From IMG/VR virus record IMGVR_UViG_2740892271_000012: a DNA stretch of 48,408 bases. One strand, written 5' to 3'. Below, piece by piece: positions 11,759-34,470 of this stretch (within the stretch, counting starts at the first letter, position 1; every line of letters begins with the position of its first letter). The notes under the pieces were generated by a model. It did not search any database. It had not been told where the DNA came from and saw only the letters and a list, made by a program, of their open reading frames with translations. Both the position numbers and the translations under genes were made by a program. The DNA comes from a virus. Taxonomy: Duplodnaviria > Heunggongvirae > Uroviricota > Caudoviricetes.

Positions 11759-11896
11759 ACGTTACTAGATCAAAGAGCATTAGTTCATATGTAAATTGAC
11801 ATTTTTCTGGCACAGGGGAGAGCTAGCGTGGTTGTCCGCTTTGTGCCAATAGCGGACATTGCTGGCTCATGGTATGTTAGTTTAAGGAGGCAGGTT

Positions 11897-12934: not shown

Positions 12935-13936
12935 ATGGATATTCGCACACGAAAGACAAAATTTTTAGAGTCGTTAGATTCAACTGAAGTGATACGCAAA
13001 GCAGTAAGTCTCGCTATAGATTGCATTATTGATAATCATAATAGTAATGAAGATACCCCCTTAGTTATTACCAGCTATGATGATCTCTGTAGAATCCAGG
13101 TGCTAAATTATGTACAGGAGTTTTGCGAAGCTGCATTCCCTGATATGGATGAATATTACTTTAGTCCTAACATACTTCGCATCAACGGCAAGACTAGTGA
13201 AGAAGCTTGTATTAACTTAATTAAACTCTTAAGAAGTACAAAAGGCATGCTATTCTGGTCCGATGCCCCATCGTGGTTCGCTAGCCTCCCCGACGGATTA
13301 TTCCATGTTGTTAACATTGATCAAAAAATCGTTACTCGCGGCCTTAATAAGAAAAACTCTAAGCCGACAATAATCAATAAAGATTACAGTGTAGATACAC
13401 TACTATCAGAGCTATTTTTGAATGGCGCACACATGGAGCAACCCAACGTACACAACGTTTCTGAGGGAAACATGAAGTTCTATGATGAATGCCATGCTGG
13501 ATTAATCAGACCAATACCCGCTCCAATAGGCGCGTCATACGATGAAGAGATCACAATTAATTCTCCAGATTGGCAAAAGCTCGCGTGTGTAGCTTTACGC
13601 CGCTATCAGTCGAAGGAATGTCATGACGGAATGCAATGGGATACAACCGATCATGGTTGGACTGATGTAATCGCGTATCCATTCGTCGAAGAAATACAAT
13701 CAATGGATAATAGTGGTTATCGACAATGTTTAGTTGGGCTGGTCACAATAAACAATTCAAATGCAAATTCTCCGTACCTATCTACCGTTTGGATACATCC
13801 ATTTTATCGCAGGAGAGGGTTATTAAGTAAGTTATGGCCAAAATTACAAGAGTTATATGGAAGTAACTTCGAAATTGAGCGACCTAATGAAAATATGAAA
13901 GCATTTCTGAAAAGTGCGAAACACGCAGATTACTAA
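12935..13936 (+). CDS. Cargo protein B: two-domain protein with a C-terminal GNAT-like acetyltransferase fold
   Basis: ORF track 333 aa; 15 bp after gene A; C-terminal segment CLVGLVTI...VWIHPFYRRRGLLSKL resembles GNAT motif A (encoded around 13796-13825); N-terminal ~180 aa unrecognised. Confidence 0.6.
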   Translation: MDIRTRKTKFLESLDSTEVIRKAVSLAIDCIIDNHNSNEDTPLVITSYDDLCRIQVLNYVQEFCEAAFPDMDEYYFSPNILRINGKTSEEACINLIKLLRSTKGMLFWSDAPSWFASLPDGLFHVVNIDQKIVTRGLNKKNSKPTIINKDYSVDTLLSELFLNGAHMEQPNVHNVSEGNMKFYDECHAGLIRPIPAPIGASYDEEITINSPDWQKLACVALRRYQSKECHDGMQWDTTDHGWTDVIAYPFVEEIQSMDNSGYRQCLVGLVTINNSNANSPYLSTVWIHPFYRRRGLLSKLWPKLQELYGSNFEIERPNENMKAFLKSAKHADY

Positions 13937-16308: not shown

Positions 16309-16598
16309 TGGTGAATTTACGTAAAGCGGCTAAAGGCCAGATGTGCCAGATCAGAATCCCTGGCTACTGCAATCACAATCCCGAAACCTCTGTGCTGGCG
16401 CATTACAGGCTGGCGGGGACGTGCGGAACAGCGACAAAACCACATGATATGCAGGCGGCGATAGCCTGTAGCTCATGCCACGATCTAATCGACGGGCGGG
16501 TAAAAACCAGCGATTACACCAAAGAAGAATTGCGCCTGATGCATGCTGAAGGGGTTTTTCGCACACAAGAAATCTGGAGAAAGAAAGGTCATTTATGA
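16308..16598 (+). CDS. YbcO-like DUF1364 protein (Cys4 putative nuclease)
   Basis: ORF track 96 aa MVNLRKAAKGQMCQIRIPGYCNHNPETSVLAH...CSSCHDLID; recalled similarity to DLP12 YbcO. Confidence 0.65.
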   Translation: MVNLRKAAKGQMCQIRIPGYCNHNPETSVLAHYRLAGTCGTATKPHDMQAAIACSSCHDLIDGRVKTSDYTKEELRLMHAEGVFRTQEIWRKKGHL

Positions 16599-17137
16599 TT
16601 TACCCAACGAATACAGGAAAAAGCGGAGAACACCTTCGCCTCACCACGCTGGAAAGTGTCTGGATTCAGGGAAAACTACGTATGTGGGGGCGCTGGTCGT
16701 ATATTGGCGGTGGCAGGTCAGGGAATATGTTCAATCAGTTGTTGGCATCCAAAAAACTGACGAAAACAGCCATTAATGAAGCCCTGCGCAGAATGAAAAA
16801 AGCGGGAATAGAGAAAGCTGAGCTGGAAGCGTTTTTGCGAGAGATGATCAACGGCAAGCAAAAGAGCTGGCTGGCGCATTGTACTGATGCAGAGGCGTTA
16901 TGTATTGATCGAGTCATAAGTGAGGTGCTGGCAGAGCATCCAGGATTGATTTGCATTCTCCGGCAACGCTATGAAGGGCGGGGGATGACTAAGCGCAAAA
17001 TGGCTGAATTGCTAAATGATGCACACCCAGAGTGGTGTTTTAGCACATGCGAAAAACGGATTGCTAATTGGTTAGCTGTTGCTGAGTATGCCCTATATAT
17101 TCCCATGCGTGAATCATTTGCTGAGAAAATGGCTTGA
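16595..17137 (+). CDS. Putative late-gene antiterminator (Q-like)
   Basis: ORF track 180 aa; last gene before the lysis region, overlapping start with the previous gene; WxxGxW-type block (RMWGRWSY); assignment is largely positional. Confidence 0.55.
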   Translation: MIYPTNTGKSGEHLRLTTLESVWIQGKLRMWGRWSYIGGGRSGNMFNQLLASKKLTKTAINEALRRMKKAGIEKAELEAFLREMINGKQKSWLAHCTDAEALCIDRVISEVLAEHPGLICILRQRYEGRGMTKRKMAELLNDAHPEWCFSTCEKRIANWLAVAEYALYIPMRESFAEKMA

Positions 17138-19623: not shown

Positions 19624-20110
19624 TGCCTCCATCATTACGAAAAGTCGTTGCTGCTGCTATTGGTGGCGGAGCAATTGCTATAGCATCAGTGTTAATCACT
19701 GGCCCAAGTGGTAACGATGGTCTGGAAGGTGTCAGCTACATACCATACAAAGATATTGTTGGTGTATGGACTGTATGTCACGGGCATACAGGAAAAGACA
19801 TCATGNNNNNNNNNNNNNNNNNNNNNNNNNNNNNNNNNNNNNNNNNNNNNNNNNNNNNNNNNNNNNNNNNNNNNNNNNNNNNNNNNNNNNNNNNNNNNNN
19901 NNNNNNNNNNNNNNNNNNNNNNNNNNNNNNNNNNNNNNNNNNNNNNNNNNNNNNNNNNNNNNNNNNNNNNNNNNNNNNNNNNNNNNNNNNNNNNNNNNNN
20001 NNNNNNNNNNNNNNNNNNNNNNNNNNNNNNNNNNNNNNNNNNNNNNNNNNNNNNNNNNNNNNNNNNNNNNNNNNNNNNNNNNNNNNNNNNNNNNNNNNNN
20101 NNNNNNNNNN
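19623..20110 (+). CDS. SAR endolysin (phage 21 R / lysozyme family); 3' part masked by N-run
   Basis: Visible N-terminus [61 protein letters not shown] (Gly/Ala-rich SAR segment); end inferred from expected length. Confidence 0.7.
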
Positions 20111-20134
20111 NNNNNNNNNNNNNNNNNNNNNNNN
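19806..20134. other. N-run (masked or unresolved sequence), 329 nt, across the endolysin 3' end and Rz start
   Basis: Literal n characters in the supplied sequence. Confidence 1.
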
Positions 20135-20575
20135 TCCGCTCTGGTTATCTGCATCATCGTCTGCCTGTCATGGGCTGTTAATCATTACCGTGATAACGCC
20201 ATTACCTACAAAGCCCAGCGCGACAAAAATGCCAGAGAACTGAAGCTGGCGAACGCGGCAATTACTGACATGCAGATGCGTCAGCGTGATGTTGCTGCGC
20301 TCGATGCAAAATACACGAAGGAGTTAGCTGATGCGAAAGCTGAAAATGATGCTCTGCGTGATGATGTTGCCGCTGGTCGTCGTCGGTTGCACATCAAAGC
20401 AGTCTGTCAGTCAGTGCGTGAAGCCACCACCGCCTCCGGCGTGGATAATGCAGCCTCCCCCCGACTGGCAGACACCGCTGAACGGGATTATTTCACCCTC
20501 CGGGAACGACTGGTAATGATGCAGGCCCAACTTGAAGGTGCTCAGCAATACATAACCGAGCAGTGTTTAAAGTAA
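20108..20575 (+). CDS. Rz-like i-spanin; start masked by N-run
   Basis: Visible part [50 protein letters not shown]... in the frame of ORF 19766-20575; start coordinate inferred. Confidence 0.6.
20331..20516 (+). CDS. Rz1-like o-spanin lipoprotein embedded in the +1 frame of Rz
   Basis: ORF track 61 aa [24 protein letters not shown]...[15 protein letters not shown]; lipobox VVGC and proline-rich body. Confidence 0.7.
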
Positions 20576-20712
20576 AATCTTAACTACAATATGATTCATT
20601 TTGATGATTGTTTCATAAGGAACAGTGAAGTAAGATCTAAGAGGAGTTAAATTTTATACAGTATAATCATAATATTGCAGCAAGGTGGTTATAATTGAAA
20701 GAATATTTAGAT

Positions 20713-22170
20713 ATGAATACATCTCATGTAAGAGTTGTTACTCATATGTGTGGGTTCCTGGTTTGGCTCTATAGTCTTTCAATGTTGCCACCAATGGTTG
20801 TAGCATTGTTTTATAAAGAAAAAAGCCTGTTCGTTTTCTTTATAACTTTCGTTATATTTTTTTGCATTGGTGGCGGAGCGTGGTATACAACTAAGAAATC
20901 TGGCATTCAATTACGTACCCGTGATGGGTTTATTATAATTGTAATGTTTTGGATTTTGTTTTCTGTTATTAGTGCATTCCCTTTATGGATTGACTCAGAA
21001 CTTAATTTAACGTTCATTGATGCTCTGTTTGAAGGGGTTTCTGGAATAACAACAACAGGAGCAACTGTAATTGATGATGTTAGTTCATTACCTCGGGCAT
21101 ATTTGTACTATCGGTCACAGTTAAATTTTATAGGTGGTTTAGGAGTTATTGTTCTGGCGGTTGCAGTATTGCCATTATTGGGTATTGGTGGTGCAAAGCT
21201 TTATCAGTCAGAAATGCCGGGGCCATTTAAGGATGACAAACTCACTCCCCGCCTGGCCGATACGTCACGGACACTGTGGATAACTTATTCTTTATTAGGT
21301 ATTGCTTGTATTGTCTGTTATAGACTTGCAGGAATGCCTTTGTTTGATGCTATTTGTCACGGGATTTCCACAGTTTCGCTTGGTGGTTTCTCAACTCATA
21401 GCGAGAGTATCGGATATTTTAATAACTATTTGGTTGAGCTGGTGGCTGGTTCTTTTTCCCTGCTATCGGCTTTCAACTTCACTCTTTGGTATATTGTTAT
21501 TAGCAGAAAAACGATAAAACCTTTAATCAGAGATATTGAACTTCGTTTCTTTCTGTTAATAGCCTTAGGGGTGATCATTGTTACCTCTTTCCAGGTCTGG
21601 CATATAGGTATGTATGACTTGCATGGAAGTTTTATTCATTCGTTTTTTCTTGCCAGCTCCATGCTCACTGATAATGGTTTAGCTACGCAGGATTATGCAA
21701 ACTGGCCCACGCACACGATAGTGTTTTTGCTGTTGTCAAGTTTCTTTGGGGGATGTATAGGTTCAACCTGTGGTGGAATTAAGTCACTTCGATTTCTTAT
21801 ACTTTTCAAACAAAGCAAACACGAGATAAATCAGCTTTCTCATCCCAGAGCGTTGTTGAGTGTAAATGTAGGAGGGAAGATAGTTACAGATCGTGTAATG
21901 AGGTCTGTATGGAGTTTCTTTTTTCTTTATACTCTCTTCACGGTGTTTTTTATACTGGTGTTAAATGGTATGGGATATGATTTTCTTACATCATTTGCAA
22001 CAGTGGCTGCATGTATTAATAATATGGGATTAGGTTTTGGGGCTACTGCATCGTCATTCGGAGTGCTTAATGACATTGCAAAATATTTAATGTGCATAGC
22101 TATGATTCTTGGTCGCCTTGAAATTTATCCTGTTATTATATTGTTTTCAGGTTTTTTTTGGCGCTCCTAA
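20713..22170 (+). CDS. trkG: TrkG potassium uptake protein (TrkH family)
   Basis: ORF 20695-22170; ATG at 20713 gives MNTSHVRVVTHMCGFLVWLYSLSMLPPMVVALFYKEK...; multi-pass membrane protein; AT-rich. Confidence 0.9.
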   Translation: MNTSHVRVVTHMCGFLVWLYSLSMLPPMVVALFYKEKSLFVFFITFVIFFCIGGGAWYTTKKSGIQLRTRDGFIIIVMFWILFSVISAFPLWIDSELNLTFIDALFEGVSGITTTGATVIDDVSSLPRAYLYYRSQLNFIGGLGVIVLAVAVLPLLGIGGAKLYQSEMPGPFKDDKLTPRLADTSRTLWITYSLLGIACIVCYRLAGMPLFDAICHGISTVSLGGFSTHSESIGYFNNYLVELVAGSFSLLSAFNFTLWYIVISRKTIKPLIRDIELRFFLLIALGVIIVTSFQVWHIGMYDLHGSFIHSFFLASSMLTDNGLATQDYANWPTHTIVFLLLSSFFGGCIGSTCGGIKSLRFLILFKQSKHEINQLSHPRALLSVNVGGKIVTDRVMRSVWSFFFLYTLFTVFFILVLNGMGYDFLTSFATVAACINNMGLGFGATASSFGVLNDIAKYLMCIAMILGRLEIYPVIILFSGFFWRS

Positions 22171-22307
22171 TATATGGCTGATTTATAATTGTGAGTTTAA
22201 TATTATGTTGACTCACTCATTGATCCAATACCTAACTTTACCAGCAACACCTCCGCCCCCAGTAGCACTGGCTGCTGGGGTGCGTTTTATTCATAAAGCA
22301 AGGCTGT

Positions 22308-23096
22308 ATGAGCGAGAAATTAAAGATAGTCTATCGCCCATTACAAGAATTGTCACCGTATGCGCACAACGCCAGGACGCACAGTACTGAGCAGGTGGCA
22401 CAACTGGTAGAAAGTATTAAGCAATTCGGCTGGACTAATCCGGTGCTGATTGACGAAAAGGGCGAAATTATTGCGGGTCACGGTCGTGTTATGGCGGCTG
22501 AAATGCTCAAAATGGATTCTGTTCCGGTCATTGTTCTGTCTGGCCTGACGGATGAGCAGAAAAAGGCGTACCGCCTGGCAGATAATCGCCTGCCGATGAA
22601 TGCTGGCTGGGATGAAGATCTGTTGCGGATGGAGCTGTCGGACCTAATCAATGCTGATTTTGATGTCTCCCTGACAGGCTTCATCCCGGCAGAAATTGAT
22701 GAACTGTTGACGGATGTTTTGCCCGGTACAGGAAATGAGGAGGAGCCGTATACGACGAAAATTGATACGCCTGTTTATGAGCCGTCAGGCGGTAAACCGG
22801 ATATCAGTGAACTGTACGACGATACGAAAACTCAGGAGCTGATCAGCCGGATACGTTCGGCGTCCCTTGATCCTGATATTGAGAAATTCCTCCTGTGTGC
22901 AGCAGAACGTCACACGGTGTTTAATTTCAGCAGAATTGCGGACTATTACGCTCATGCCCCCGCTGAAATTCAGTGCCTTTTCGAGGAGTCGGCGCTGGTG
23001 ATCATTGATTATCAGCAGGCTATTGAAAATGGATTTGTCCGAATGACGCAGCGCATGGTGGAGATCATGCATGGCGGGGAGGAGGAATATGCGTGA
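22308..23096 (+). CDS. ParB-like nuclease domain protein (intact YnaK/YdaY-like)
   Basis: ORF track 262 aa MSEKLKIVYRPLQELSPYAHNARTHSTEQVAQLVESIKQFGWTNPVLIDEKGEIIAGHGR (ParB N-terminal nuclease-type motif). Confidence 0.75.
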   Translation: MSEKLKIVYRPLQELSPYAHNARTHSTEQVAQLVESIKQFGWTNPVLIDEKGEIIAGHGRVMAAEMLKMDSVPVIVLSGLTDEQKKAYRLADNRLPMNAGWDEDLLRMELSDLINADFDVSLTGFIPAEIDELLTDVLPGTGNEEEPYTTKIDTPVYEPSGGKPDISELYDDTKTQELISRIRSASLDPDIEKFLLCAAERHTVFNFSRIADYYAHAPAEIQCLFEESALVIIDYQQAIENGFVRMTQRMVEIMHGGEEEYA

Positions 23097-24021
23097 TGAT
23101 TTTTGCGCCTTTATTCTGACTCACGGGCGACCGGACAAAGTTCTGACTTACCGGACGTTGCGTCGTGCTGGCTATACCGGGAAAATTTTTATCGTTGTTG
23201 ATGATGAAGATAAGACACGGCATCAGTACATGGCTGAATTTGGTGAACAGGTGCTGGTATTTTCCAAAGCCGATATTGCTAGTCGTTTTGACGAAGCCGA
23301 TAATTTTAGTGACCGCCGCTCAATTTTTTACGCCCGTAATGCCTGTTTCGACCAGGCAAAACTGGTCGGGTGTAAATACTTCATTCAGCTCGATGATGAT
23401 TATCACGAGTTCCAGTTTCGGGTGGATCGCAACTATGACCAGGCCTATTTCCCGATAAGGAAACTGGATGAGATCCTTTCTGAAATGCTTGCGTACTACG
23501 AATCAATACCTGCTCTTTCCATCGCTATGTCGCAGGGCGGGGATTTTCTTGGTGACAATGGCGGCCATGCTTCGTGGGTGAAACGCAAGGCAATGAACAG
23601 CTTTATCTGTTCGGTTGATCGACCGTTCTCATTCATGGGGCGCATTAACGAGGATGTGAATACGTACACGAATCTCGGTCGCTGTGGTGAATTGTTTATG
23701 ACGATCGGTGCTGTCCAGTTAGGGCAGAAACAGACGCAGAAAAACAGCGGCGGAATGACCGAGCTGTATCTGGATTCCGGAACCTACGTTAAAAGTTTTT
23801 ACTCCGTCATGTATGCGCCGTCGTGCGTAAAAATCTCACTTATGGGTGCCAGTCATAAACGCATTCACCATCAGGTCACCTGGAACAACGCTGCAGTAAA
23901 AATCCTTCACGAAAAATACAGGAAGAAGACACCCTGCATATCAATGGGGGTGACAAATGATTCCGTATTCGAAAGTCGAGTCTCTGGCAGCGTGCCGGAT
24001 GACTGCACAACAAATCGCTGA
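23089..24021 (+). CDS. Hypothetical protein with possible GT-A-like features (DxD-like LDDDY)
   Basis: ORF 23071-24021; ATG at 23089 after GGAGGAGG, overlapping previous stop (ATGCGTGA); FILTHGRPDKV...IFIVVDDEDK...IQLDDDYHEF pattern; fold assignment is tentative. Confidence 0.45.
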   Translation: MRDDFCAFILTHGRPDKVLTYRTLRRAGYTGKIFIVVDDEDKTRHQYMAEFGEQVLVFSKADIASRFDEADNFSDRRSIFYARNACFDQAKLVGCKYFIQLDDDYHEFQFRVDRNYDQAYFPIRKLDEILSEMLAYYESIPALSIAMSQGGDFLGDNGGHASWVKRKAMNSFICSVDRPFSFMGRINEDVNTYTNLGRCGELFMTIGAVQLGQKQTQKNSGGMTELYLDSGTYVKSFYSVMYAPSCVKISLMGASHKRIHHQVTWNNAAVKILHEKYRKKTPCISMGVTNDSVFESRVSGSVPDDCTTNR

Positions 24022-24208
24022 CGTTCTGGATGTTGATCTGAACCGACTGAAAGAAAATCGGGAAGCAATGACAGATTTTTATGCGGCCATCCGTAAGGGC
24101 AGAGCGAAAGGTGAAGCCGAGTTACGAGCGGCATTGTTTAAGCTTGCCAGAAAAGGGGATGCCTTTGCTCTGCGCGAACTACTCAGGGTGGATAAAAATC
24201 AGGACTAA
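23957..24208 (+). CDS. Small hypothetical protein (helix-rich, basic)
   Basis: ORF track 83 aa overlapping the 3' end of the previous gene; immediately before the terminase small subunit. Confidence 0.35.
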   Translation: MIPYSKVESLAACRMTAQQIADVLDVDLNRLKENREAMTDFYAAIRKGRAKGEAELRAALFKLARKGDAFALRELLRVDKNQD

Positions 24209-24211
24209 CTG

Positions 24212-25306
24212 ATGAGCAGACCGGACTGGGGGGCGTTGCAGCAGGAGTATATTGCTGAATACACCCGCTCCGGTATATCTCCGGTGGCATGGTGTGAAGC
24301 AAGGGGACTGAATTACGCAACAGCCCGTCGTTACATCAAAAAAACTCCGAAAAATGCGCAGACAGAAATGTGCAAAACTGCGCAAAAAAGTGCGCAGAAA
24401 AAATCTGCGCAGACTGCACAAAAGCGGAACGAAAAATCTCAGGAAAAAAAGCCAGTATTCGATGCGGGCCTGAATGAGGGCGACGCGGAGGAATTTTCGT
24501 TCTGTCCCGATGAATTCGGCATTTCTGACCAGCAGGCTAAGTTTGCGATGCTTGTTGCTCAGGGTAAAAAGCCGACAGAGGCGTACCGACTAGCCGGTTA
24601 TGAGGGGCAAGGTGCGACAGCTAACAGCAACGCCAGTCGTATGCTTAGAAATGCCAGGGTTTTTCGCGCTATCAGCTACTTCCGCAATCAGTACCAGAAA
24701 CGCTATACCGCAGACCTGGATTTACTAGTGAGTCAGTTGATGGCTATTGTCCTGGCCGACCCCAATCAGCTTGCACAATTTCGCCGTGTTAACTGCCGTT
24801 ATTGCTGGGGCGAGAATCATCTCTACCAGTGGCGCGATATAGCAGAATTCGACAAGGCAGCGGCGCAGGCTTCCAGAGATGGCAAACCCGAACCGGAATA
24901 TGGAGGCCTCGGCTTTGTTGATAACGCCATACCCAATCCGGACTGCCCGAAGTGCTGCGGTGAGGGAACGGGACAGCTTTATATGGCTGATACCACTCTG
25001 CTTGATGGGGATGCGCGGCAATTATATGCAGGGGCAAAATTCGGAAAATTCGGCGTTGAGATCCTGCTGGAGGATAAGGCTGCCGCCCGGCGTGAATTGT
25101 TGCGTTTGTTTTCTGCTGGCGGGGCTTTATGTGCAGATAAGCGGCTACGGGAACTGGAAATTGAACGGCGCAGAATGGAAAACCAGAAGCTGCGCAAAGA
25201 GATCGAAACGGTGGAAGATAATGAACATCCCCAGCCTGTGGCGATCAATATTAATGTGGTTGATGCCAGAGTAAGGAGTGATGAAGATGATCTCTCCGAC
25301 GCTTAA
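24212..25306 (+). CDS. Terminase small subunit (N-terminal HTH)
   Basis: ORF track 364 aa; N-terminal GISPVAWCEARGLNYATARRYIKK; Cys-rich central region; directly precedes the terminase large subunit. Confidence 0.6.
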   Translation: MSRPDWGALQQEYIAEYTRSGISPVAWCEARGLNYATARRYIKKTPKNAQTEMCKTAQKSAQKKSAQTAQKRNEKSQEKKPVFDAGLNEGDAEEFSFCPDEFGISDQQAKFAMLVAQGKKPTEAYRLAGYEGQGATANSNASRMLRNARVFRAISYFRNQYQKRYTADLDLLVSQLMAIVLADPNQLAQFRRVNCRYCWGENHLYQWRDIAEFDKAAAQASRDGKPEPEYGGLGFVDNAIPNPDCPKCCGEGTGQLYMADTTLLDGDARQLYAGAKFGKFGVEILLEDKAAARRELLRLFSAGGALCADKRLRELEIERRRMENQKLRKEIETVEDNEHPQPVAININVVDARVRSDEDDLSDA

Positions 25307-26588
25307 TGTGCCTCAGGCGCGATTTCTTTCAATGCCCCATAAATTTAAAGCCTATATTGCTGGTTTTGGCTCGGGCAAAACATGGGTTGGGTGTGGCGGC
25401 ATATGCAAGGGGATTTGGGAGCATCCAGGTATAAATCAGGGATATTTTGCGCCAACGTATCCCCAAATTCGCGATATTTTTTACCCTACAGTGGAAGAAG
25501 TTGCTGCTGACTGGGGATTGAACGTAAAAATTAATGAGGGAAATAAAGAGGTTCACTTTTATTACGGACGCCAGTATCGGGGAACCACTATCTGCAGATC
25601 GATGGAGAAGCCACAAACGATCGTCGGTTTCAAAATTGGTAATGCGTTGGTGGATGAACTGGACATTTTGCCGAAGGAAAAAGCCAGAACGGCGTGGCGC
25701 AAGATAATTGCACGTATGCGTTATAAGATTGATGGACTTCGCAACGGTATTGACGTTACAACCACGCCGGAAGGATTCAAATTTGTCTACGAGCAGTTTG
25801 TTAAAGCCGTGCGTGAAAAAACAGAGCTGGCCTCACTGTATGGTCTGGTGCAGGCATCTACTTTCGATAATGAAAAGAACCTGCCAGCAGATTACATTCC
25901 TTCGCTTCTTGAATCATACCCTCCAGAGCTGATTAAAGCCTATCTTCGAGGACAGTTTACTAACCTGACAAGTGGTACTGTTTACCATCAGTTTGACCGG
26001 AAACTGAATAATTGCGAAGAAGTGGAGCAGCCAGGGGAGCCGATTTATATTGGGATGGATTTTAACGTTGGAAAGATGGCGGGAATCGTCCATGTGCTGC
26101 GTTTGGGGCTTCCATGTGCGGTAACTGAAATCATCAATGCCTACGATACGCCGGATATGATCCGCATCATTAAAGAACGCTTCTGGCTGTATGATGGGAA
26201 TGATTACCGGAAAGTGAGGGAAATTTATATTTATCCAGATGCTTCCGGGGATTCCAGAAAATCAAGTAACGCAAGTACGACGGATATAGCCCAGCTTAAG
26301 CAGGCTGGTTTTAACGTTGTGGTGAACAGCTCGAACCCGCCAGTAAAAGATCGCGTTAACTCAATGAATGCAATGTTCTGCAATGCCAATGGTGAGCGTC
26401 GCTATAAAGTTAATGTGAAGCGTTGCCCGTTATATGCCGAATCTCTGGAGCAACAGGTCTGGGATGAGAAGGGGGAGCCTGATAAAAAATCTGGCAATGA
26501 TCACCCGAATGATGCCGGAGGTTATTTCATCGTTAAGCAATTCCCTATTGTCAAACCGACCGGAAGAGTCACATCACTTCGGATTTAA
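25287..26588 (+). CDS. Terminase large subunit
   Basis: ORF 25278-26588; ATG at 25287 after AAGGAG; Walker A AGFGSGKT; C-terminal nuclease-like acidic residues. Confidence 0.8.
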   Translation: MISPTLNVPQARFLSMPHKFKAYIAGFGSGKTWVGCGGICKGIWEHPGINQGYFAPTYPQIRDIFYPTVEEVAADWGLNVKINEGNKEVHFYYGRQYRGTTICRSMEKPQTIVGFKIGNALVDELDILPKEKARTAWRKIIARMRYKIDGLRNGIDVTTTPEGFKFVYEQFVKAVREKTELASLYGLVQASTFDNEKNLPADYIPSLLESYPPELIKAYLRGQFTNLTSGTVYHQFDRKLNNCEEVEQPGEPIYIGMDFNVGKMAGIVHVLRLGLPCAVTEIINAYDTPDMIRIIKERFWLYDGNDYRKVREIYIYPDASGDSRKSSNASTTDIAQLKQAGFNVVVNSSNPPVKDRVNSMNAMFCNANGERRYKVNVKRCPLYAESLEQQVWDEKGEPDKKSGNDHPNDAGGYFIVKQFPIVKPTGRVTSLRI

Positions 26589-26590
26589 TT

Positions 26591-27997
26591 ATGGCTGATA
26601 TATCAACACCCAACCTCGACTATAACGATATGCTGGAGGCGTGGGATATTAACGACGCACTGATGGGCGGTACGCTTGAAATGCGCAGGCAGGGGGAAAA
26701 TTATCTCCCAAAATGGCCTAACGAAGATGAAGACGCTTATAAAAAACGCCTGTCTGTGGCTACGCTACTTCCTGTGTATGAAGAAAGCATCAAGCAAAAT
26801 ATTGGGCGCATATTTGCAGAGCCGACAGTATTGAGTGAGGAAACGCCGGCAAAAATCAGGGAATATGCAGAAAATATCGACATGGAGGGGAGCCGACTGG
26901 ATGTGTGGGCGCAGCAATTTTTCAGCCTCGCATTTCAGTATGGTGTGGCACATGCGCTGGTGGACTATCCACGAACGGATATGAAAGAGATTCGGACAAA
27001 AGCCGATGAAAACGCGACCGGTGGTCGTCCGTACGTTACGATGCTGAATCCACGCCAGGTTATTGGATGGAAATCGAAAGTTGAAAAAGGGAAAGTTGTT
27101 CTCACTGATTTGCGTATAAAAGAGGTCATCATTATTGATGGTGATGATTTCGGGCAGAAGAAGGTGGAGCAGATCCGCCATATTATGCCCCGTCGAGTTG
27201 AAATTTATCGACGTAGCGAAGGCACTAATGGCGAATCTGTCTGGACGCTTCATGAGTCATGGAATACCAGCCGTGATGATATTCCTCTGGTAACACTGTA
27301 CACGAAGAAAACAGGATTTATGCGTGGTACACCGCCATTGCTTAATCTTGGCTTGCTGAATATCAAGCACTGGCAAAGCCAGAGCGAGCAGGACAATATT
27401 CTTCATGTTGCCCGCGTTCCATTGCTGGTGGCCTACGGGCTGGACAGGAATGAAGAACTGACGGTTGGTGCATCCACCGCTACGATTTTTGAGGACAGAA
27501 CAAAAAATGGCCTCGAATATGTTGAACATAGTGGCGCAGCGATAGAATCTGGCGAAACATCACTTGAGAAGCTGGAAAATCAGATGCGTCATGCCGGCGC
27601 TAAACTTCTGCGTGCTGAAAATACATCCACCAAATCTGTTGATCAGACTAATGAAGAGCGAATGCAGGAAAACTCGCCGCTTTATACAATGGCGAACTCC
27701 CTCGAAGATGCCCTCGATAATATTCTCCAGATAATGGCGGAATGGATCGGAGAGAGTTGCGGTGGCAATGTGGATGTGCGCACTGAACTGGATGTATCTG
27801 CCCAGGTGTTTGACTCATCCTCCGCGCTGGCTGTTCAGTCATTGCGTCAGGGCGGTGATATACGTCAGATTGATGCGGTTCGGGTGTTGCAGGCGTTGAA
27901 ATTTATCGATCAGGATTCCCGTCCAGAGGAAGTGATCGATGAATTAAAAAATCAGAGTGTAATGCTGATGGAAATCAATGATGCAAACCGTGAATGA
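26591..27997 (+). CDS. Portal protein (putative)
   Basis: ORF track 468 aa immediately after the terminase large subunit; size and position typical. Confidence 0.65.
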   Translation: MADISTPNLDYNDMLEAWDINDALMGGTLEMRRQGENYLPKWPNEDEDAYKKRLSVATLLPVYEESIKQNIGRIFAEPTVLSEETPAKIREYAENIDMEGSRLDVWAQQFFSLAFQYGVAHALVDYPRTDMKEIRTKADENATGGRPYVTMLNPRQVIGWKSKVEKGKVVLTDLRIKEVIIIDGDDFGQKKVEQIRHIMPRRVEIYRRSEGTNGESVWTLHESWNTSRDDIPLVTLYTKKTGFMRGTPPLLNLGLLNIKHWQSQSEQDNILHVARVPLLVAYGLDRNEELTVGASTATIFEDRTKNGLEYVEHSGAAIESGETSLEKLENQMRHAGAKLLRAENTSTKSVDQTNEERMQENSPLYTMANSLEDALDNILQIMAEWIGESCGGNVDVRTELDVSAQVFDSSSALAVQSLRQGGDIRQIDAVRVLQALKFIDQDSRPEEVIDELKNQSVMLMEINDANRE

Positions 27998-29093
27998 ACG
28001 GCTGCGTGATGAATCAATTGCTCATGCAGTCTGGATATCCCGCTATAGCACTGGCGTGGCTGCCAGAATGGTGAAAATACTGAATGACAGCGATGCGGAA
28101 CTTACTGCTCGCCTGCTGATAGCACTGGACAGCCTCGATCCAGGTAGTTTTACCGTTAAGCGCCTGGAGTCACTTCTGGCGAGCGTCAGAGAGGTTAACC
28201 GCACTGCTATTAACAGCATGTTTACCAGTCTCTCCGGAGAGCTGAACGAGCTGGCAATTTATGAGGCTGGTTATCAGTTAAGTCTGTTTGATTCTATGCT
28301 ACCTGATTTTGTTGCTGATGTTCACCCTCTGGTTGGTATCTCTCCTGATGCACTTTATGCCGCTGCAATGGCGCGACCATTCCAGGGACGACTGCTCAGT
28401 GAGTGGGCCTCAGATCTTGAGGCGGATCGGCTCAGACGCATAACAAATACAGTGCGTCAGGGTTTTTTGCTGGGGGATACCAATGAGCAGATCGCAAGAA
28501 AAATTCGGGGACATGTCAGTAAGGGATTTCAGGATGGTGCATTGCAGATGAGCCGGGCTAATGCGGCCAGCATTGCAAAAACAGCGGTTGGACATCTTGC
28601 TGCTACTGCCCGTGAGAGTTTTGCCAGCGCGAATAATGATTTGATTAAGGGTAAGCAATGGTTATCAACGCTTGATAATCGTACTACGCCACAATGTCGA
28701 ATCAGGGATCGCCTCAAATATACGCTGAATAATAAACCTGTAGGTCACAGCGTGCCTTATTTGCAGGGGCCGGGAAAAATTCATTTCTGCTGCCGCTCAA
28801 CGGAAACGTTCATTCTGAAATCAGCGAAGGAACTGGGTATTGATGTTCGCGATATTTCCCCGGCTGAGCGGGCCAGCATGGATGGCGTGGTGGCCGGAGA
28901 TACAACCTACAGGGAATGGTTTTTGCGTCAGCCTTACACCAGACAAAAACAGATTGTGGGGGAAAGCCGAGCAAAGCTGATTCGGGATGGTGGTATGTCG
29001 CCAGATGAATTTTACACCGATAAAGGCGAATGGCTGACGCTGAAGCAGCTCCGTGAGCGTGATGCACAGGTATTCAGAAAAGCAGGGATTTAA
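27978..29093 (+). CDS. Head morphogenesis protein (Mu F / SPP1 gp7-like)
   Basis: ORF track 371 aa; region WLSTLDNRTTPQCRIRDRLKY typical of the MuF-like family. Confidence 0.75.
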   Translation: MMQTVNERLRDESIAHAVWISRYSTGVAARMVKILNDSDAELTARLLIALDSLDPGSFTVKRLESLLASVREVNRTAINSMFTSLSGELNELAIYEAGYQLSLFDSMLPDFVADVHPLVGISPDALYAAAMARPFQGRLLSEWASDLEADRLRRITNTVRQGFLLGDTNEQIARKIRGHVSKGFQDGALQMSRANAASIAKTAVGHLAATARESFASANNDLIKGKQWLSTLDNRTTPQCRIRDRLKYTLNNKPVGHSVPYLQGPGKIHFCCRSTETFILKSAKELGIDVRDISPAERASMDGVVAGDTTYREWFLRQPYTRQKQIVGESRAKLIRDGGMSPDEFYTDKGEWLTLKQLRERDAQVFRKAGI

Positions 29094-29112
29094 ATAAATC
29101 ATTTATTACAAC

Positions 29113-29138
29113 AGGCTACCTTCGGGTGGCCTTTTTTA
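29113..29138 (+). terminator. Terminator-like hairpin before the scaffold gene
   Basis: Seen in sequence: aggctacc ttcg ggtggcct tttttt (one G-U pair). Confidence 0.4.
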
Positions 29139-29197
29139 TTGCTGCGATCCGGATGGTGAGCAGCGTAACTGTCGGAAGACTTAAACCAGGTACTAAT

Positions 29198-29962
29198 ATG
29201 AAACTGAAAACGGTCGAGATTAACGGAAAACAATACGCAGAAATTGATACTGCTGGCCTGCCAGTTTATGTGCACGACGATGGTAAAGAAATTGGCTTCG
29301 ATGCACCGCTGGCGACAAAAAAAATTACAGAGCTTAATGGCGAGGCAAAAAATCATCGCCTGGCTAAAGAAGCTGCAGAGGAAAAACTGGCTAAGTTTGC
29401 CGCTATCGAAGACCCGAAGAAGGCGATCGAGGCACTGGAAATGCTGTCAAAAATCGACCAGAAAAAGCTGCTCGATGCGGGACAGGTTGACCAGGTTAAG
29501 GCAGAAATTACGAAAAATTTTCAGCAGCAATTAGATGAAGAAAAGCAACGCTCTCAGATGCTGGAGAAGCAGCTTTACGATTCTATGATTGGCGGTAGTT
29601 TTGCGGGTTCAAAATATATTGCCGATAAAATTGCGATCCCGGCAGATTTATTACAAGCCCGCTTCGGGCAGGCATTCAAAGTGGAAGAAGGGAGGATCGT
29701 TGCTTATGACGCTTCCGGCAACAAAATTTATTCCCGCGCGAAGCCTGGCGAACTGGCGCAGTTTGATGAGGCGCTGGAGTTCCTTGTCGAAAATTACCCT
29801 CAGAAAGACTACATCCTGAAAGCCAGTGGCAACAATGGCGGCGGCTCCCGTCCGACACAGCATGATATTGGTCAGAAAACGATGAAACGCTCTGCTTTTG
29901 ATGCACTGGATGTTGCAGGTAAGCAAAACGCATTGAAAGACGGTATCACAATCGTTGATTAA
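29198..29962 (+). CDS. Scaffolding protein (putative)
   Basis: ORF 29126-29962; ATG at 29198 gives MKLKTVEINGKQYAEID...; helical, charged, between MuF-like and capsid genes. Confidence 0.55.
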   Translation: MKLKTVEINGKQYAEIDTAGLPVYVHDDGKEIGFDAPLATKKITELNGEAKNHRLAKEAAEEKLAKFAAIEDPKKAIEALEMLSKIDQKKLLDAGQVDQVKAEITKNFQQQLDEEKQRSQMLEKQLYDSMIGGSFAGSKYIADKIAIPADLLQARFGQAFKVEEGRIVAYDASGNKIYSRAKPGELAQFDEALEFLVENYPQKDYILKASGNNGGGSRPTQHDIGQKTMKRSAFDALDVAGKQNALKDGITIVD

Positions 29963-30060
29963 CACATTTGTCAGCTTCCGGATGGGAGCTGGTGTCAGGG
30001 CTGGATAGCTCATTACTCCATCTATTCACAATTACGCAAATTTTTAAGGAATATTTAATT

Positions 30061-31200
30061 ATGGCTGGAAATACCCTGACCGGGTTGATCCCGACTATTT
30101 ATACCGCCCTGGATGTTGTATCCCGTGAGCAGGTAGGTTTTATCCCTGCGGTAGCAAAAAACGCAAAAGCTGACGCCGCAGCAAAAGATCAGACGGTAAC
30201 CGCGCCAGTTGCGCCTGAGGCGAAAACCGAAGATATCGTACCGGGGCCGTCAGCTCCGAATACCGGTGATCAAAATATTGGCACTGTTGATGTAAAAATT
30301 ACTAAATCCAAAATGGCACCGGTTAAATGGAATGGTGAAGAACAACTGGCTCTTGGCCCTTCAGGGACTTACAACACCATTCTGGCTGATCAGTTCAAGC
30401 AGGCTTTTCGCGCCCTTGCAAACGAGGTTGAGGCTGATCTTGGTGCGTTGTATTTCGGTGCTTCCCGCGCCGTGGGAACCGCAGGGACAACGCCGTTTGG
30501 TGTTAAAGATGATCTTTCTGATGCTGCTCTGGCTCGTCAGGTTCTGGAGGATAACGGCGCACCGACAACCGATCTGCAGATGGTGCTTGGCTCCACTGCC
30601 ATTGCTAATTTGCGCGGAAAACAGTCTGTATTGTTTAAAGTGAATGAATCCGGCACTGAACAGCTACTGCGTGAGGGCGTGTTGGGGCGTCTGGAGGGAT
30701 TCAATATTCACAGTTCGGCAGGTGTGAAACGAGCGCCAAAGGTTGCTGCAACTGGTTATCTCGTGAATGGAGAGAAAAAAGAAGGCGATGTTCTTATTTC
30801 CATTGATACTGGTTCGGGGAGTATTTCTGCAGGTCAGATTGTTACGTTCGCTGGTGATCCGAATCAGTATGTTGTGGCAGCAGCGACCAGCAATCTGATT
30901 ACTCTTGCAGCGCCCGGACTGCGTCAGGATCTGGCCGATGATACTGCCATCACAGTTGTTGGGGCCTTTACTGCAAATATGGCGTTTGATCGCAACGCGT
31001 TTCTGCTGGCATCCCGTACTCCGGCAATGCCGGAAGGTGGCGATAATGCTGATGATGTAATGAATGTTACGGACCCGATTTCAGGGATTACGTTCCAGAT
31101 TGCACTGTATCGTCAGTATCGCCAGGTGCGCTATGAAGTTGGACTGGCATGGGGTGTTTCATCAGTGAAGCCGGCACATGGTTGTCTGATTCTTGGTTAA
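30061..31200 (+). CDS. Major capsid protein (putative)
   Basis: ORF 29968-31200; ATG at 30061 gives MAGNTLTGLIPTIYTALDVVSREQVGF...; followed by a strong terminator. Confidence 0.65.
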   Translation: MAGNTLTGLIPTIYTALDVVSREQVGFIPAVAKNAKADAAAKDQTVTAPVAPEAKTEDIVPGPSAPNTGDQNIGTVDVKITKSKMAPVKWNGEEQLALGPSGTYNTILADQFKQAFRALANEVEADLGALYFGASRAVGTAGTTPFGVKDDLSDAALARQVLEDNGAPTTDLQMVLGSTAIANLRGKQSVLFKVNESGTEQLLREGVLGRLEGFNIHSSAGVKRAPKVAATGYLVNGEKKEGDVLISIDTGSGSISAGQIVTFAGDPNQYVVAAATSNLITLAAPGLRQDLADDTAITVVGAFTANMAFDRNAFLLASRTPAMPEGGDNADDVMNVTDPISGITFQIALYRQYRQVRYEVGLAWGVSSVKPAHGCLILG

Positions 31201-31210
31201 ACATTCAAAC

Positions 31211-31230
31211 GGGGCTTCGGCCCCATTTTT
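31211..31230 (+). terminator. Rho-independent terminator after the capsid gene
   Basis: Seen in sequence: ggggc ttcg gcccc attttt. Confidence 0.5.
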
Positions 31231-31242
31231 AATGGGGGGCAT

Positions 31243-31419
31243 ATGGCCGGATTAACTAAAGAGCAAAGAGCACAGCGTGAAGCCGCACAAAAAACGCAAA
31301 TTGAGTTAGTGGTTATGGTGACCGATTATCAGATGTTTCCCGGCGCACCAACTATCGCTAATGTTCATCCTGATGAAGTTGACAACTGGAAGGCTATGGG
31401 CTGGAAAACTCAGGAGTAA
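31243..31419 (+). CDS. Small hypothetical protein (58 aa)
   Basis: Hand translation MAGLTKEQRAQREAAQKTQIELVVMVTDYQMFPGAPTIANVHPDEVDNWKAMGWKTQE; G-rich SD-like run upstream; below ORF-track cutoff. Confidence 0.3.
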   Translation: MAGLTKEQRAQREAAQKTQIELVVMVTDYQMFPGAPTIANVHPDEVDNWKAMGWKTQE

Positions 31420-31422
31420 CAC

Positions 31423-31818
31423 ATGATCACTTACGTGACCTGTGATGACGTTGATAATGCGTTTGGGAACGCCTGGACGAGTGAGAACGCTAAAAATAAA
31501 GCTGTTTTAATGGCTAATGCCTGGCTTAATGGCTTCAACCTGAAAATTAACCCATCCCGTATTCCGGAAGAGGTAAAACTTGCGGGAGCATATGCAGCCA
31601 GAATTGCCTCATTCGGTAAGTTGTTTCAGCAGAAAAATGATTCTGGCGTTGTTATCAGTAAAGCCGTGTCGGCTGACGGGGTCAGTGTATCGAAATCATT
31701 TTCTGAGTTGCCAGCAAACAGCACTGCATTGCTTGAACCCGATTTACAGCTTGCGATAGCACTGCTGAAACCGTACGGACTTAGTCGCTCACAAGTCAGG
31801 GTTGTGAGGGGGGGATAA
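31423..31818 (+). CDS. Head-tail joining protein (putative)
   Basis: ORF track 131 aa; position after capsid, coupled to following genes. Confidence 0.45.
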   Translation: MITYVTCDDVDNAFGNAWTSENAKNKAVLMANAWLNGFNLKINPSRIPEEVKLAGAYAARIASFGKLFQQKNDSGVVISKAVSADGVSVSKSFSELPANSTALLEPDLQLAIALLKPYGLSRSQVRVVRGG

Positions 31819-32201
31819 TGGGGCTTCGTGAAGAGATTCAGTCAGAGGTTGCCGCTGCTTTTGATGAGGATTTAGCGGACGCCGTGAGTGATTTTTCTGG
31901 TTCTTACGTTACGCACCGGCACTGGGATCCTGTGACGGAAACTGGCGGCGAATCAACCGCAATCTATACCGGGCGAGGCGTGTTGACACGTTATAAGCTG
32001 GGCAGAATTGATGGGATTAATATTTTGCATGGTGACCTTAAATTAACCGCTCTGGTATGCGAGGTTACGGATAAACCAGCTGTCGACCATATTATTGAGA
32101 TTTATGATCCTGTATCAAGGCAGTTACAACGATACGAGGTAATTACAGCAAGTGTAGATCCTTCCGCATCAGTTTACTCTATCCAGTTAAGGAGAGCGTA
32201 A
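31818..32201 (+). CDS. Head-tail joining / head closure protein (putative)
   Basis: ORF track 127 aa; overlapping start with previous stop. Confidence 0.4.
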   Translation: MGLREEIQSEVAAAFDEDLADAVSDFSGSYVTHRHWDPVTETGGESTAIYTGRGVLTRYKLGRIDGINILHGDLKLTALVCEVTDKPAVDHIIEIYDPVSRQLQRYEVITASVDPSASVYSIQLRRA

Positions 32202-32582
32202 ATGGCAAAGGCATGGGATATAGAACCGTCAATATTTGCCGGGATGATTGAGGAAGATGTAGGGCTGAAGATTCGCTACATCGCTATGCAGATTCTTACT
32301 GCTATTGATATTGCTGCTCCGGTTGATACCGGACGTTTCAGAAATAACAACCTGGTGTCGTTACAGCATCCCGATTTTGGTATATCTGATAACGTGGATC
32401 CGAACGGTACGATTGCTGTTCAGCGTGGGATCGGGGTTATTTCGAAAGCTGCAAATTACGGGGTTATTTATATCCAGAATAACCTTCCTTATGCAGAGGC
32501 TCTTGAAAACGGTCATTCACAACAAGCGCCAACTGGCGTGTATGCCAACGCTTTTCATGGTGTTTTACAGGCTTACAAATGA
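32202..32582 (+). CDS. Tail completion protein (putative)
   Basis: ORF track 126 aa; tightly packed structural operon. Confidence 0.4.
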   Translation: MAKAWDIEPSIFAGMIEEDVGLKIRYIAMQILTAIDIAAPVDTGRFRNNNLVSLQHPDFGISDNVDPNGTIAVQRGIGVISKAANYGVIYIQNNLPYAEALENGHSQQAPTGVYANAFHGVLQAYK

Positions 32583-32971
32583 AGTTTACTGAAATCAGAA
32601 ATACGGTTATTTCCAGAATGACGGCACAGACGATTATTGATGGAAAAGACGTATTGTATCCGAACGGGCCAACGTTCGATCCTTCCGGTAAGTTAATCTG
32701 GGCGCGGTTAAGTAATATTCCCGGGCAGGCTGGAGTTAATGAAATTGGCGCGGGGCCGGTTGTTTATCGCACGGGGATAATCATTATTCAGTTATTTGTC
32801 CCCGCAGGTTCTGGTTCAAAACTCATTACTGAGACAGCCGATAAATTGCGGGAACTGTTTGAGTTTCAGGATGACGATCGTCTCAGTTACCAGGCTGTTT
32901 CCTCAATAGCCGTTGGCGAAAAGAATGGCTGGTTCCAGCTTAATCTTCAAATTCCATATCGCGCGCTCTAG
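32579..32971 (+). CDS. Tail terminator / minor tail protein (putative)
   Basis: ORF track 130 aa; overlapping start; precedes major tail gene. Confidence 0.4.
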   Translation: MKFTEIRNTVISRMTAQTIIDGKDVLYPNGPTFDPSGKLIWARLSNIPGQAGVNEIGAGPVVYRTGIIIIQLFVPAGSGSKLITETADKLRELFEFQDDDRLSYQAVSSIAVGEKNGWFQLNLQIPYRAL

Positions 32972-32997
32972 CGCAATTAATGACATAGGAGGCTCCT

Positions 32998-33960: not shown

Positions 33961-34008
33961 TTTTCCGTTATTCCTCCTGTGGTACTGCCCTACAGGGGGA
34001 CGCATTGA

Positions 34009-34470
34009 ATGAGGTTATGGATGTTTATTCTTAATCAGAAAATTATCATTGGTGGAGAACGCTGGTTTACGCCAATGAAGGACTTAAAACCTGTAGACGG
34101 GTTAAAACTGTTGGTGGCAAGCAGCGATAACGATCAGTATCGCTCCCGTAATGCATTAATCCGTCGCCACATTGAGAAAATGGATGCCAGTTTGCACGTC
34201 GGAACGAAGGAGTTTGATATTTCAAAGGTTTCCGAGGTGGATTCTGTTGATGATTTACTCATTGATAATGCCGCTCGTTATCTGCTGAAAGACTGGAAAG
34301 GGGTTGGTGAACTGGTTAATGGTGTTGAGGTTGCACTGGAATATACGGCAGAACGAGGGATCGCGCTGCTTAAGCAGAATCCAGAGTTGTACTGGCAGAT
34401 CCTTGCAGAAGCAGCCAGCATCGCCCAGGGTAAAGAGCAGCAGAAGCAGGATACGATAAAAAAGCCATAG
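34009..34470 (+). CDS. Tail assembly chaperone (lambda G-position)
   Basis: ORF track 153 aa ending ...QQKQDTIKKP; slippery A AAA AAG at 34458-34464 near the 3' end. Confidence 0.6.
   Translation: MRLWMFILNQKIIIGGERWFTPMKDLKPVDGLKLLVASSDNDQYRSRNALIRRHIEKMDASLHVGTKEFDISKVSEVDSVDDLLIDNAARYLLKDWKGVGELVNGVEVALEYTAERGIALLKQNPELYWQILAEAASIAQGKEQQKQDTIKKP

Follow-up and report, generated by a model that had tools for sequence, protein, structure and literature searches.

What is a ParB-like gene doing beside the terminase genes of a Rac-type prophage, and what does the gene coupled to it encode? The question arises in a stretch of 48,408 nucleotides (IMG/VR virus record IMGVR_UViG_2740892271_000012), the whole of which was analysed and is called the window here; all of it is a Rac-type lambdoid prophage of Escherichia coli. 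Between positions 22308 and 24208, an earlier note made from the sequence had described three open reading frames (ORFs), for a ParB-like nuclease, an unassigned partner protein and a small protein overlapping the partner's 3' end, and had considered packaging initiation or DNA modification as their role. All three ORFs lie where that note placed them, on the plus strand, as do the domains, junction, hairpin and terminase genes described with them below. Our reading is that the first two genes form a late-expressed, adaptor-dependent glycosylation module whose target would be DNA, or something bound to DNA, and which would work without the classical precursor. We hold this reading with confidence that is about evenly balanced, and of the roles considered for the pair, DNA modification is the best-supported type.

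The partner gene (23089-24021) encodes a protein of 310 amino acids (aa), the 311 aa reported earlier having included the stop codon. Far from being unassigned, the product is a clear member of the Pfam family PF20691 (TET-associated glycosyltransferase, TAGT; 118.9 bits against a cutoff of 27.5, E 3.7e-34, residues 8-222). It also matches phrog_842 at 7.5e-104, and its newer RefSeq name is “GREB1-related protein.” PF20691 is carried by all 120 of the database homologs listed. The family itself was reportedly defined by Iyer et al. in 2013. Structure prediction, proposed earlier as a check, gave a GT-A nucleotide-sugar transferase fold: the AlphaFold2 model, for which 64 homologs served as input, has a pLDDT of 89.6 and aligns with models of viral TAGT proteins at TM scores of up to 0.78/0.86, and no solved structure is close to the protein in sequence. 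The Rossmann-like and DxD-like elements noticed before find their place in this fold, the latter as DDD at residues 102-104 (nucleotides 23392-23400).

Across the 64 homologs, R14, D102, D103, D104, N187 and D189 are invariant or nearly so. The putative catalytic motif would comprise, besides DDD, R14 and N187-E-D189. An R...DDD...ED motif was described by Pyle et al. for phage GT-A DNA glycosyltransferases and the base-J glucosyltransferase JGT (bioRxiv 10.1101/2023.12.21.572611). Matched by residues, without direct alignment to JGT, this motif appears intact in the prophage protein, which makes for an active-looking enzyme with putative catalysis. Neither the glycosyltransferase nor the product of the small ORF has a match in PADLOC, and thus they do not represent a known defence system.

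The first gene (22308-23096) encodes 262 aa and is the intact form of ynaK of E. coli K-12. Its product, which we call the adaptor, matches PHROG 620 over residues 1-250 (1.7e-90) and phrog_15396 (1.6e-51). Residues 1-140 (22308-22727) form a predicted ParB/Srx (ParB_N) nucleotide-binding-type domain, recognized by PHROG and PADLOC profiles and, marginally, by Pfam PF02195 (29.3 bits against a cutoff of 26.3). The closest profiles to these first ~140 residues are those of ParB_N domains fused to DNA methyltransferases (phrog_498, 6e-51; PADLOC MTase_II, 1.5e-38), and the PDB Spo0J/ParB structures 1vz0, 4umk and 6sdk match at 1e-4 to 1e-5 (best 1.8e-5).

Is the adaptor a partition protein? It shares the ParB_N fold with partition ParB of the Spo0J/ParB-parS-ParA system but differs from it in several respects. 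Pfam finds no helix-turn-helix (HTH) DNA-binding domain in the adaptor, no parA gene lies in its neighbourhood, and box II, where the GERR-type P motif has its phosphate-binding arginine, reads A-G-H-G-R60 (GHGR) in place of the GERR of Spo0J, the E and the first R being replaced (family conservation is at least 95% for G57 and 80-95% for R60). With TIGR00180 (ParB/RepB/Spo0J) the score is 38.1 bits, below the cutoff of 58.45, and the match is confined to the N-domain. The protein is also very acidic (pI 4.5). Judged by these features, the adaptor is not a partition protein; phage records name the gene “chromosome (plasmid) partitioning protein.” Nor does anything here point to nuclease activity: that description is the old Pfam name for ParB_N, a nuclease-specific motif was not identified in the adaptor, and ParB_N is the least conserved region in the alignment of homologs and is absent in about a quarter of the modules.

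The best conserved region of the adaptor is its C-terminal domain (aa ~147-245; 22746-23042), delimited by conservation in the homolog alignment and called here the TAGT-partner domain. It begins with the motif Y148-T-x-K-I-x-x-P-x-Y157-E-P...P164, continues into a helical part and contains the further motifs F-L-x-x-A-A-x-R201-H202, I-A-D-Y-Y-A-H and S-A-L-V-I-I-D234. Sequence and profile searches of Pfam, NCBIfam and the PDB returned no relatives of this domain. The best PDB match, Adhesin A (E 0.04), was judged to be a chance hit.

How strictly are the two genes associated? Among 48 diverse viral or metagenomic loci with a glycosyltransferase 55-82% identical to the prophage protein, a ParB homolog is present in every one, and in 47 it lies directly upstream with the same start/stop overlap. 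No other neighbour is universal in these loci, and the pairwise identities of the ParB and glycosyltransferase proteins correlate (r = 0.85). This arrangement upholds the earlier proposal that the two genes form a coupled functional unit. When the partner domain alone was used as the query, 77 of 80 viral loci proved to have a TAGT gene as the next gene downstream; of the three exceptions, two (L196 and L197) are deletion derivatives that lack the TAGT gene, and the third has a donor-synthesis gene inserted. The same holds for 74 of the 75 genome loci with enough flanking sequence, drawn from Enterobacterales, Bacteroidota, Clostridia, Veillonella, Verrucomicrobiota, Patescibacteria, Acidimicrobiia, Methanosphaera and others. 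The lone genome locus with no TAGT gene (L275, 2557-3360) comes from a Syntrophorhabdus metagenome-assembled genome, differs in its N-terminal region, ~140 aa without a Pfam match, and is flanked by chromosomal-looking genes (a GlgC-like gene among them); it may be a prophage edge or an assembly join. Isolated viruses carry the module too: Lactobacillus phages c5, LL-Ku and phi jlb1, Nocardia phage NTR1, Vibrio phages of 191-196 kb and the haloarchaeal virus HHTV-2. The partner domain is recognizable at 1e-45 to 1e-53 in phage c5, HHTV-2 and a Vibrio jumbo phage. Literature searches on DNA modification in HHTV-2 gave nothing relevant.

The N-terminal part of the adaptor is less constant than its C-terminal domain. 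ParB_N is fused to the partner domain in 59 of 79 loci; in the other 20 it is missing, and the partner is mostly a stand-alone protein of ~132 aa, again encoded directly upstream of the TAGT gene. MKQxxLFG is the usual start of the stand-alone partners (Qxx[LMIVF][FL] falls within the first 14 residues of 59 of 83, among P0276-P0382; e.g., L170, 8001-8402), a type of start that the Vibrio phage protein does not have. The bacterial beta-clamp-binding motif is QL[SD]LF; the MKQxxLFG start resembles it and may be a sliding-clamp-binding element. No ParB-TAGT fusion protein was found among the homologs; where other TAGT proteins are extended at the N-terminus, the added part is a second TAGT domain, a methyltransferase or a P-loop kinase-like domain, not ParB. 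One apparent fusion (P0081) looks like a miscalled junction. The transferase family and a general association of ParB, glycosyltransferase and terminase genes are already known. As far as we searched the literature, the partner domain, its near-absolute coupling to TAGT with or without ParB_N and the consistent lack of a precursor enzyme (see below) have not been described.

In the prophage, the ATG of the glycosyltransferase gene overlaps the TGA of the ParB gene as ATGCGTGA (23089-23096), preceded by a G-rich Shine-Dalgarno sequence, GGGGAGGAGG, at 23076-23085. Together they form a junction (23076-23096) that reads as one of translational coupling with a strong Shine-Dalgarno sequence, as had been proposed. 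RefSeq/PGAP uses the same starts for both genes. Upstream of the pair is an intrinsic-terminator-like hairpin (22257-22290; 10 stem pairs, 7 of them G-C, tail TGCGTTTTAT), and no promoter-like site was found between this hairpin and the ParB start. Given a strong terminator-like hairpin and no such site, the pair is probably expressed from an antiterminated late transcript; a Q-type antiterminator (DUF1133/Phage_antitermQ) is encoded at 16595-17137. The hairpin follows trkG (20695-22170), a low-GC insertion (34-42%) with the lysis genes on one side and the late packaging operon on the other.

Rac-type prophages are often defective, which raises the possibility that the pair is a decaying or selfish passenger with no current function. 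K-12 has indeed lost the region. Rac of strain MG1655 aligns to window positions 20135-22561 and resumes at 34119, which leaves 11.56 kb (22562-34118) cleanly deleted, including the rest of the ParB gene and the glycosyltransferase, terminase, portal, head and proximal tail genes. What survives of the ParB gene is its first ~85 codons, the 87-aa ynaK, which now abuts ydaY; the alignment thus confirms that K-12 holds fragments (ynaK/ydaY) where this prophage has an intact gene. In NZ_CP058571.1 (L001), where the region is 100% identical, the ParB gene is intact (262 aa), yet PGAP records it as a partial pseudogene under the label “ynaK, missing C-terminus” (20109-20366, equal to window positions 22308-22565). 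This flag is an artefact of naming, apparently because the reference is the truncated 87-aa K-12 YnaK, and it likely affects many E. coli genomes.

The sequences of related copies argue against decay. Among alleles of the E. coli lineage, dN/dS is 0.12 for the ParB gene, 0.07 for the glycosyltransferase gene and 0.05 for the small ORF, the values for the pair being like that of terS (0.09). In close viral loci, the ParB gene is intact in 96 of 99 copies, the glycosyltransferase gene in 114 of 114 and the small ORF in 111 of 111. All these genes are under purifying selection, and the three ORFs are real genes rather than chance ORFs. Of 5426 complete E. coli genomes, 866 carry a 2.1-kb stretch with the genes at a coverage of ≥80%; 10 phage records have it too, and the pair is conserved across bacterial and archaeal viruses. 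A passenger without function is therefore extremely improbable in our estimate.

What does the transferase make? In relatives of the transferase, further enzymes or domains occur as fusions or as flanking genes: class I SAM methyltransferases, a second TAGT, a P-loop kinase-like domain (MIYLIVGxSxAGKS), a sulfotransferase, a GT1 enzyme (in one case a GT1 fragment), a radical SAM enzyme and a histidine phosphatase-cytidylyltransferase fusion, which probably serves donor synthesis (L247, 2942-3895; L164, 80-1042; L166, 2222-2614 and 3418-5190; L285, 3347-4183; L301, 3344-4195; L308, 3341-4174; P0150/P0184/P0195; P0128/P0132/L152; P0146/P0148). This range of tailoring and donor enzymes points to a real glycan product that is elaborated further in some phages, and the related modules suggest a family of diverse, tailored glycan modifications.

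The acceptor of this glycan is harder to name. The TAGT family includes kinetoplastid JGT and phage glycosyltransferases acting on DNA with 5-hydroxymethylcytosine (5hmC) (Pyle et al. 2023/2024; Burke et al. 2021), and its characterized DNA-acting members need 5hmC or 5-hydroxymethyluracil (5hmU) made by a neighbouring dioxygenase or thymidylate-synthase homolog (bioRxiv 10.1101/2023.12.21.572611; PMC8256090). No TET/JBP (PF12851) dioxygenase or hydroxymethylase was recognized in the prophage window or among the Pfam-annotated neighbours of ten look-up loci, and no precursor-forming enzyme among recurrent neighbour gene clusters or in the complete 31.8-kb genome of phage c5; for dioxygenases, this result rests on Pfam-type recognition, with no search in which a dioxygenase sequence was the probe, and divergent dioxygenases can escape Pfam (PMC13229309). 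With no recognizable source of 5hmC or 5hmU, the chemistry known for this family cannot be carried over unchanged. These points weigh against our reading of the pair, and so do the acidic adaptor with no DNA-binding domain, the protein substrate of the family member GREB1 (PMC7968844) and the fact that the literature searched held no experiments on the ParB-TAGT clade. With no hydroxymethylated base expected in the phage, there are two possibilities: DNA is glycosylated in an undescribed way, or the acceptor is not a base.

Both would be unnecessary if 5hmU or 5hmC came from an enzyme too divergent to be recognized, or from one encoded elsewhere in the phage or host, and were then glycosylated in the classical manner. 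The family name and the dependence of all characterized DNA-acting members on these two bases speak for such an enzyme, as do the specific link of ParB homologs to the pathways of thymine dioxygenases (5mYOX) and the thousands of 5mYOX-like contigs with no Pfam TET/JBP match (PMC13229309). A C5-cytosine DNA methyltransferase (PF00145) is encoded two genes upstream of a stand-alone partner and TAGT pair in L170 (6868-7614), with no Pfam-matched dioxygenase nearby, and this too can be counted in its favour. Yet no candidate for a precursor-forming enzyme appeared among the neighbours in 48 + 80 + 79 loci, where only partner and transferase are universal. Every gene inserted between these two encodes a sugar-tailoring or donor-synthesis enzyme, and the single unassigned ORF of >180 aa in phage c5 has no Pfam match. 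To our knowledge, E. coli has no enzyme that forms a hydroxymethyl base. We consider a hidden precursor enzyme quite improbable.

If DNA is glycosylated with no such enzyme, the partner domain and the TAGT clade could be a self-sufficient two-component system that requires no prior hydroxymethylation. Such a system may directly N- or O-glycosylate a canonical base or a DNA end, or it may hold on DNA a glycan that was primed on the partner. Its targeting to DNA may be provided by interchangeable modules, either the nucleoside triphosphate (NTP)-binding domain of ParB or the beta-clamp-binding motif. In this strong form the idea seems to us unlikely.

The alternative is that the acceptor is a protein. 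The transferase would then O-glycosylate its own partner, much as glycogenin primes glycogen, for example on an invariant Tyr or Ser/Thr of the proline-rich motif Y-[ST]-x-K-I-x-x-P-x-Y-E-P, or it would act on proteins of the virion or of packaging that are produced alongside it. The role of the ParB or clamp-binding module would be to place the glycoprotein on DNA, unless the module had no bearing on the substrate. Virions of mycobacteriophages are glycosylated by glycosyltransferases of late operons, a precedent for a protein acceptor (for context, PMC4351075). The partner is very acidic, its linear motif with Y148, T149 and Y157 is invariant and looks exposed, and no source of a hydroxylated base was found. 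The GT-A enzymes SunS/ThuS and glycogenin, which glycosylate peptides or themselves, are among the structural neighbours of the transferase model, although these matches are generic to the fold. GREB1, a large, cytoplasmic animal protein with a homologous glycosyltransferase domain but neither ParB partner nor phage context, is reported to O-GlcNAcylate the oestrogen receptor (Shin et al. 2021, PMC7968844). However, the N-terminal modules on the partner are of DNA-associated types, the characterized microbial and viral family members act on DNA, and the pair also occurs among replication genes, far from structural genes. Nor does invariance of the motif show that it is an acceptor. We find a protein acceptor doubtful.

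We therefore return to a module that glycosylates DNA or something bound to it. DNA is favoured as the target because ParB_N is of the kind that is fused to DNA methyltransferases and because the MKQxxLFG start of stand-alone partners resembles a beta-clamp-binding motif. A further reason is the activation of thymine dioxygenases on double-stranded DNA by phage ParB homologs that themselves have no DNA-binding domain (PMC13229309). Late co-expression with terminase fits modification of progeny DNA before packaging, and a proposal from Aravind's group, as quoted in PMC8256090, has ParB directing modification machinery during packaging. In the mechanism we envisage, the pair would be translated together from the late transcript, just ahead of terminase. 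The conserved C-terminal domain of the partner presumably binds or activates the transferase, and the N-terminal ParB/Srx domain would be an exchangeable targeting module. The sugar would most likely be placed on progeny phage DNA, or on something bound to it, before packaging, probably as an escape from host nucleases. Three parts of this mechanism are inferred: that the two proteins interact physically, that DNA is the target and that the role is one of anti-restriction.

Might the pair instead assist packaging itself? The ParB-like protein would then be a nuclease or a site-binding factor that aids terminase at pac or cos, and the transferase would be incidental. In most loci the pair is immediately upstream of terS and terL, and in phage c5 it is ORF1 and ORF2, right after cos; the proposal of ParB action during packaging by Aravind and co-workers, in the part quoted in PMC8256090, can also be read this way. 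The gene downstream is almost always a terminase, but it belongs to unrelated families (Terminase_6, Terminase_4/TerL_ATPase, lambda GpA, Terminase_3), and in some phages the pair lies among replication genes, away from terminase and structural genes. With four or more unrelated types of terminase as neighbours, and with replication gene clusters among its locations, the pair is unlikely to have the packaging-initiation role considered in the earlier note. ParB_N, the part on which such a role would depend, is the least conserved region and missing in 20 of the 79 loci, and the invariant companion of the conserved domain is the transferase, not terminase. We consider a packaging accessory very improbable. 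A search of 22100-25400 for parS-like or other repeats gave nothing convincing within the pair and found only a TGCGCA cluster inside terS.

This cluster lies in the gene for the small terminase subunit (terS, 24212-25306), which is followed by that for the large subunit (terL, 25278-26588); the two genes match Pfam Terminase_2, Terminase_6N and Terminase_6C and PHROG 51. The palindromic TGCGCA copies occupy 24337-24413, and five of the eight TGCGCARA matches in the window fall within 59 bp. Degenerate copies (TGTGCAAA, TGCACAAA) also occur, and the spacing is 12-24 bp. The same stretch encodes a low-complexity K/A/Q linker of the small terminase. The cluster may simply reflect this peptide repeat, or it may be an array bound by protein, of pac type or otherwise.

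The 83-aa ORF (23957-24208) overlaps the 3' end of the glycosyltransferase gene, as had been seen before (the overlap is 65 nt), but its grouping with the pair did not hold up. Its basic product (pI 9.3) matches phrog_309 (terminase small subunit) at profile positions 145-218 of 319 (8e-23), and the ORF is present in 21 of the 48 diverse loci, only those with the same terminase type. Its N-terminus, MIPYxKVESLAACRM, is conserved in relatives from the first ATG; PGAP has a shorter form of 69 aa that starts at 23999. By profile match and distribution, the ORF belongs to the terminase/packaging module and not to the ParB-TAGT pair. Related glycosyltransferases have 285-290 aa, and their stop codon is a TGA within GGGGGTGA that immediately precedes the ATG of the next gene. 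In the E. coli lineage, the GGGGGTGA stretch is read in another frame and the glycosyltransferase is ~22 residues longer. This lineage-specific C-terminal extension (aa ~289-310; 23953-24021) is predicted to be disordered, residues 294-310 being modelled with pLDDT <50. Since the tail extends past the stop of the relatives, the overlap with the 83-aa ORF is a by-product specific to this lineage.

Among the closest parallels to the pair are the ParB-dependent thymine dioxygenase (5mYOX) hypermodification clusters of phages described by O'Toole et al. (PNAS 2026; PMC13229309). There, too, a phage ParB homolog that has an N-terminal domain for nucleotide binding, a C-terminal domain (CTD) and no domain for DNA binding is encoded beside a DNA-modifying enzyme, and glycosyltransferases and terminases frequently co-occur. 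The adaptor's box I N-x-R and box II Arg resemble N14/R16/R56 of ParB176, a likeness drawn from residue numbering only. In contrast to those clusters, no dioxygenase is present here, and the gene coupled to ParB by stop overlap is the glycosyltransferase itself. Further, about a quarter of the modules here lack the ParB domain, and the CTDs are likened by architecture only.

With the phage GT-A DNA glycosyltransferases and JGT, the prophage enzyme shares the Pfam family, the GT-A fold and the R...DDD...ED motif, and the related loci of both phage groups elaborate the sugar with second glycosyltransferases and tailoring enzymes. The difference is that a neighbouring enzyme supplies 5hmC or 5hmU there, whereas none is recognized here and a dedicated partner domain is present. 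The ParB_N-DNA methyltransferase fusions of prophages (Kaljevic et al., PNAS 2025; PMC12704722) have a similar ParB_N, as the profile matches above indicate, a similar prophage site near terminase and presumably also carry out late DNA modification. Unlike these fusions, the adaptor has no fused methyltransferase and is joined through its extra conserved domain to a glycosyltransferase that is a separate polypeptide.

Apart from the pair, the prophage contains recET, kilR, sieB, ydaT/U/V, the Q-like antiterminator and lysis genes; head and tail genes come after the trkG insertion. Two adjacent ORFs of the early region (11828-12919, 363 aa; 12935-13936, 333 aa) have only sub-threshold Pfam matches, to HEPN/RES N-terminal domain 1 (2e-4) for the first and GNAT acetyltransferase (9e-4) for the second, and no match in PADLOC; they may be an uncharacterized accessory or defence pair. 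The second of them carries a frameshift in strain EC2. Masked runs of N (19806-20134, 39420-39483, 41849-42160, 44115-44708 and 45771-46020) fall in the lysis and tail-fibre regions, and none lies in the gene pair.

Glycosylation of phage DNA is a major route of evading restriction and CRISPR, and every case traced so far leads back to a hydroxymethylated or hydroxylated pyrimidine from a dedicated enzyme. In large surveys, the ~65% of phage glycosyltransferase contigs with no such precursor enzyme were put to one side. The pair described here shows that a large and coherent part of them is a unit of two genes, strictly conserved, under selection and equipped with its own partner domain. The partner gene is now mislabelled as a partition protein, a nuclease or a pseudogene, an annotation that an answer to the question of its role would improve. 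E. coli, as the host of the prophage, is genetically tractable and the prophage inducible, so the role of a DNA-type glycosyltransferase with no hydroxymethyl base is directly testable. Any outcome would be informative, be it new DNA chemistry, a DNA-tethered glycoprotein or an unrecognized base oxidase. If the self-sufficient system proved true, it would represent an undescribed DNA modification chemistry present in about one-sixth of sequenced E. coli and in viruses of many bacterial and archaeal phyla.

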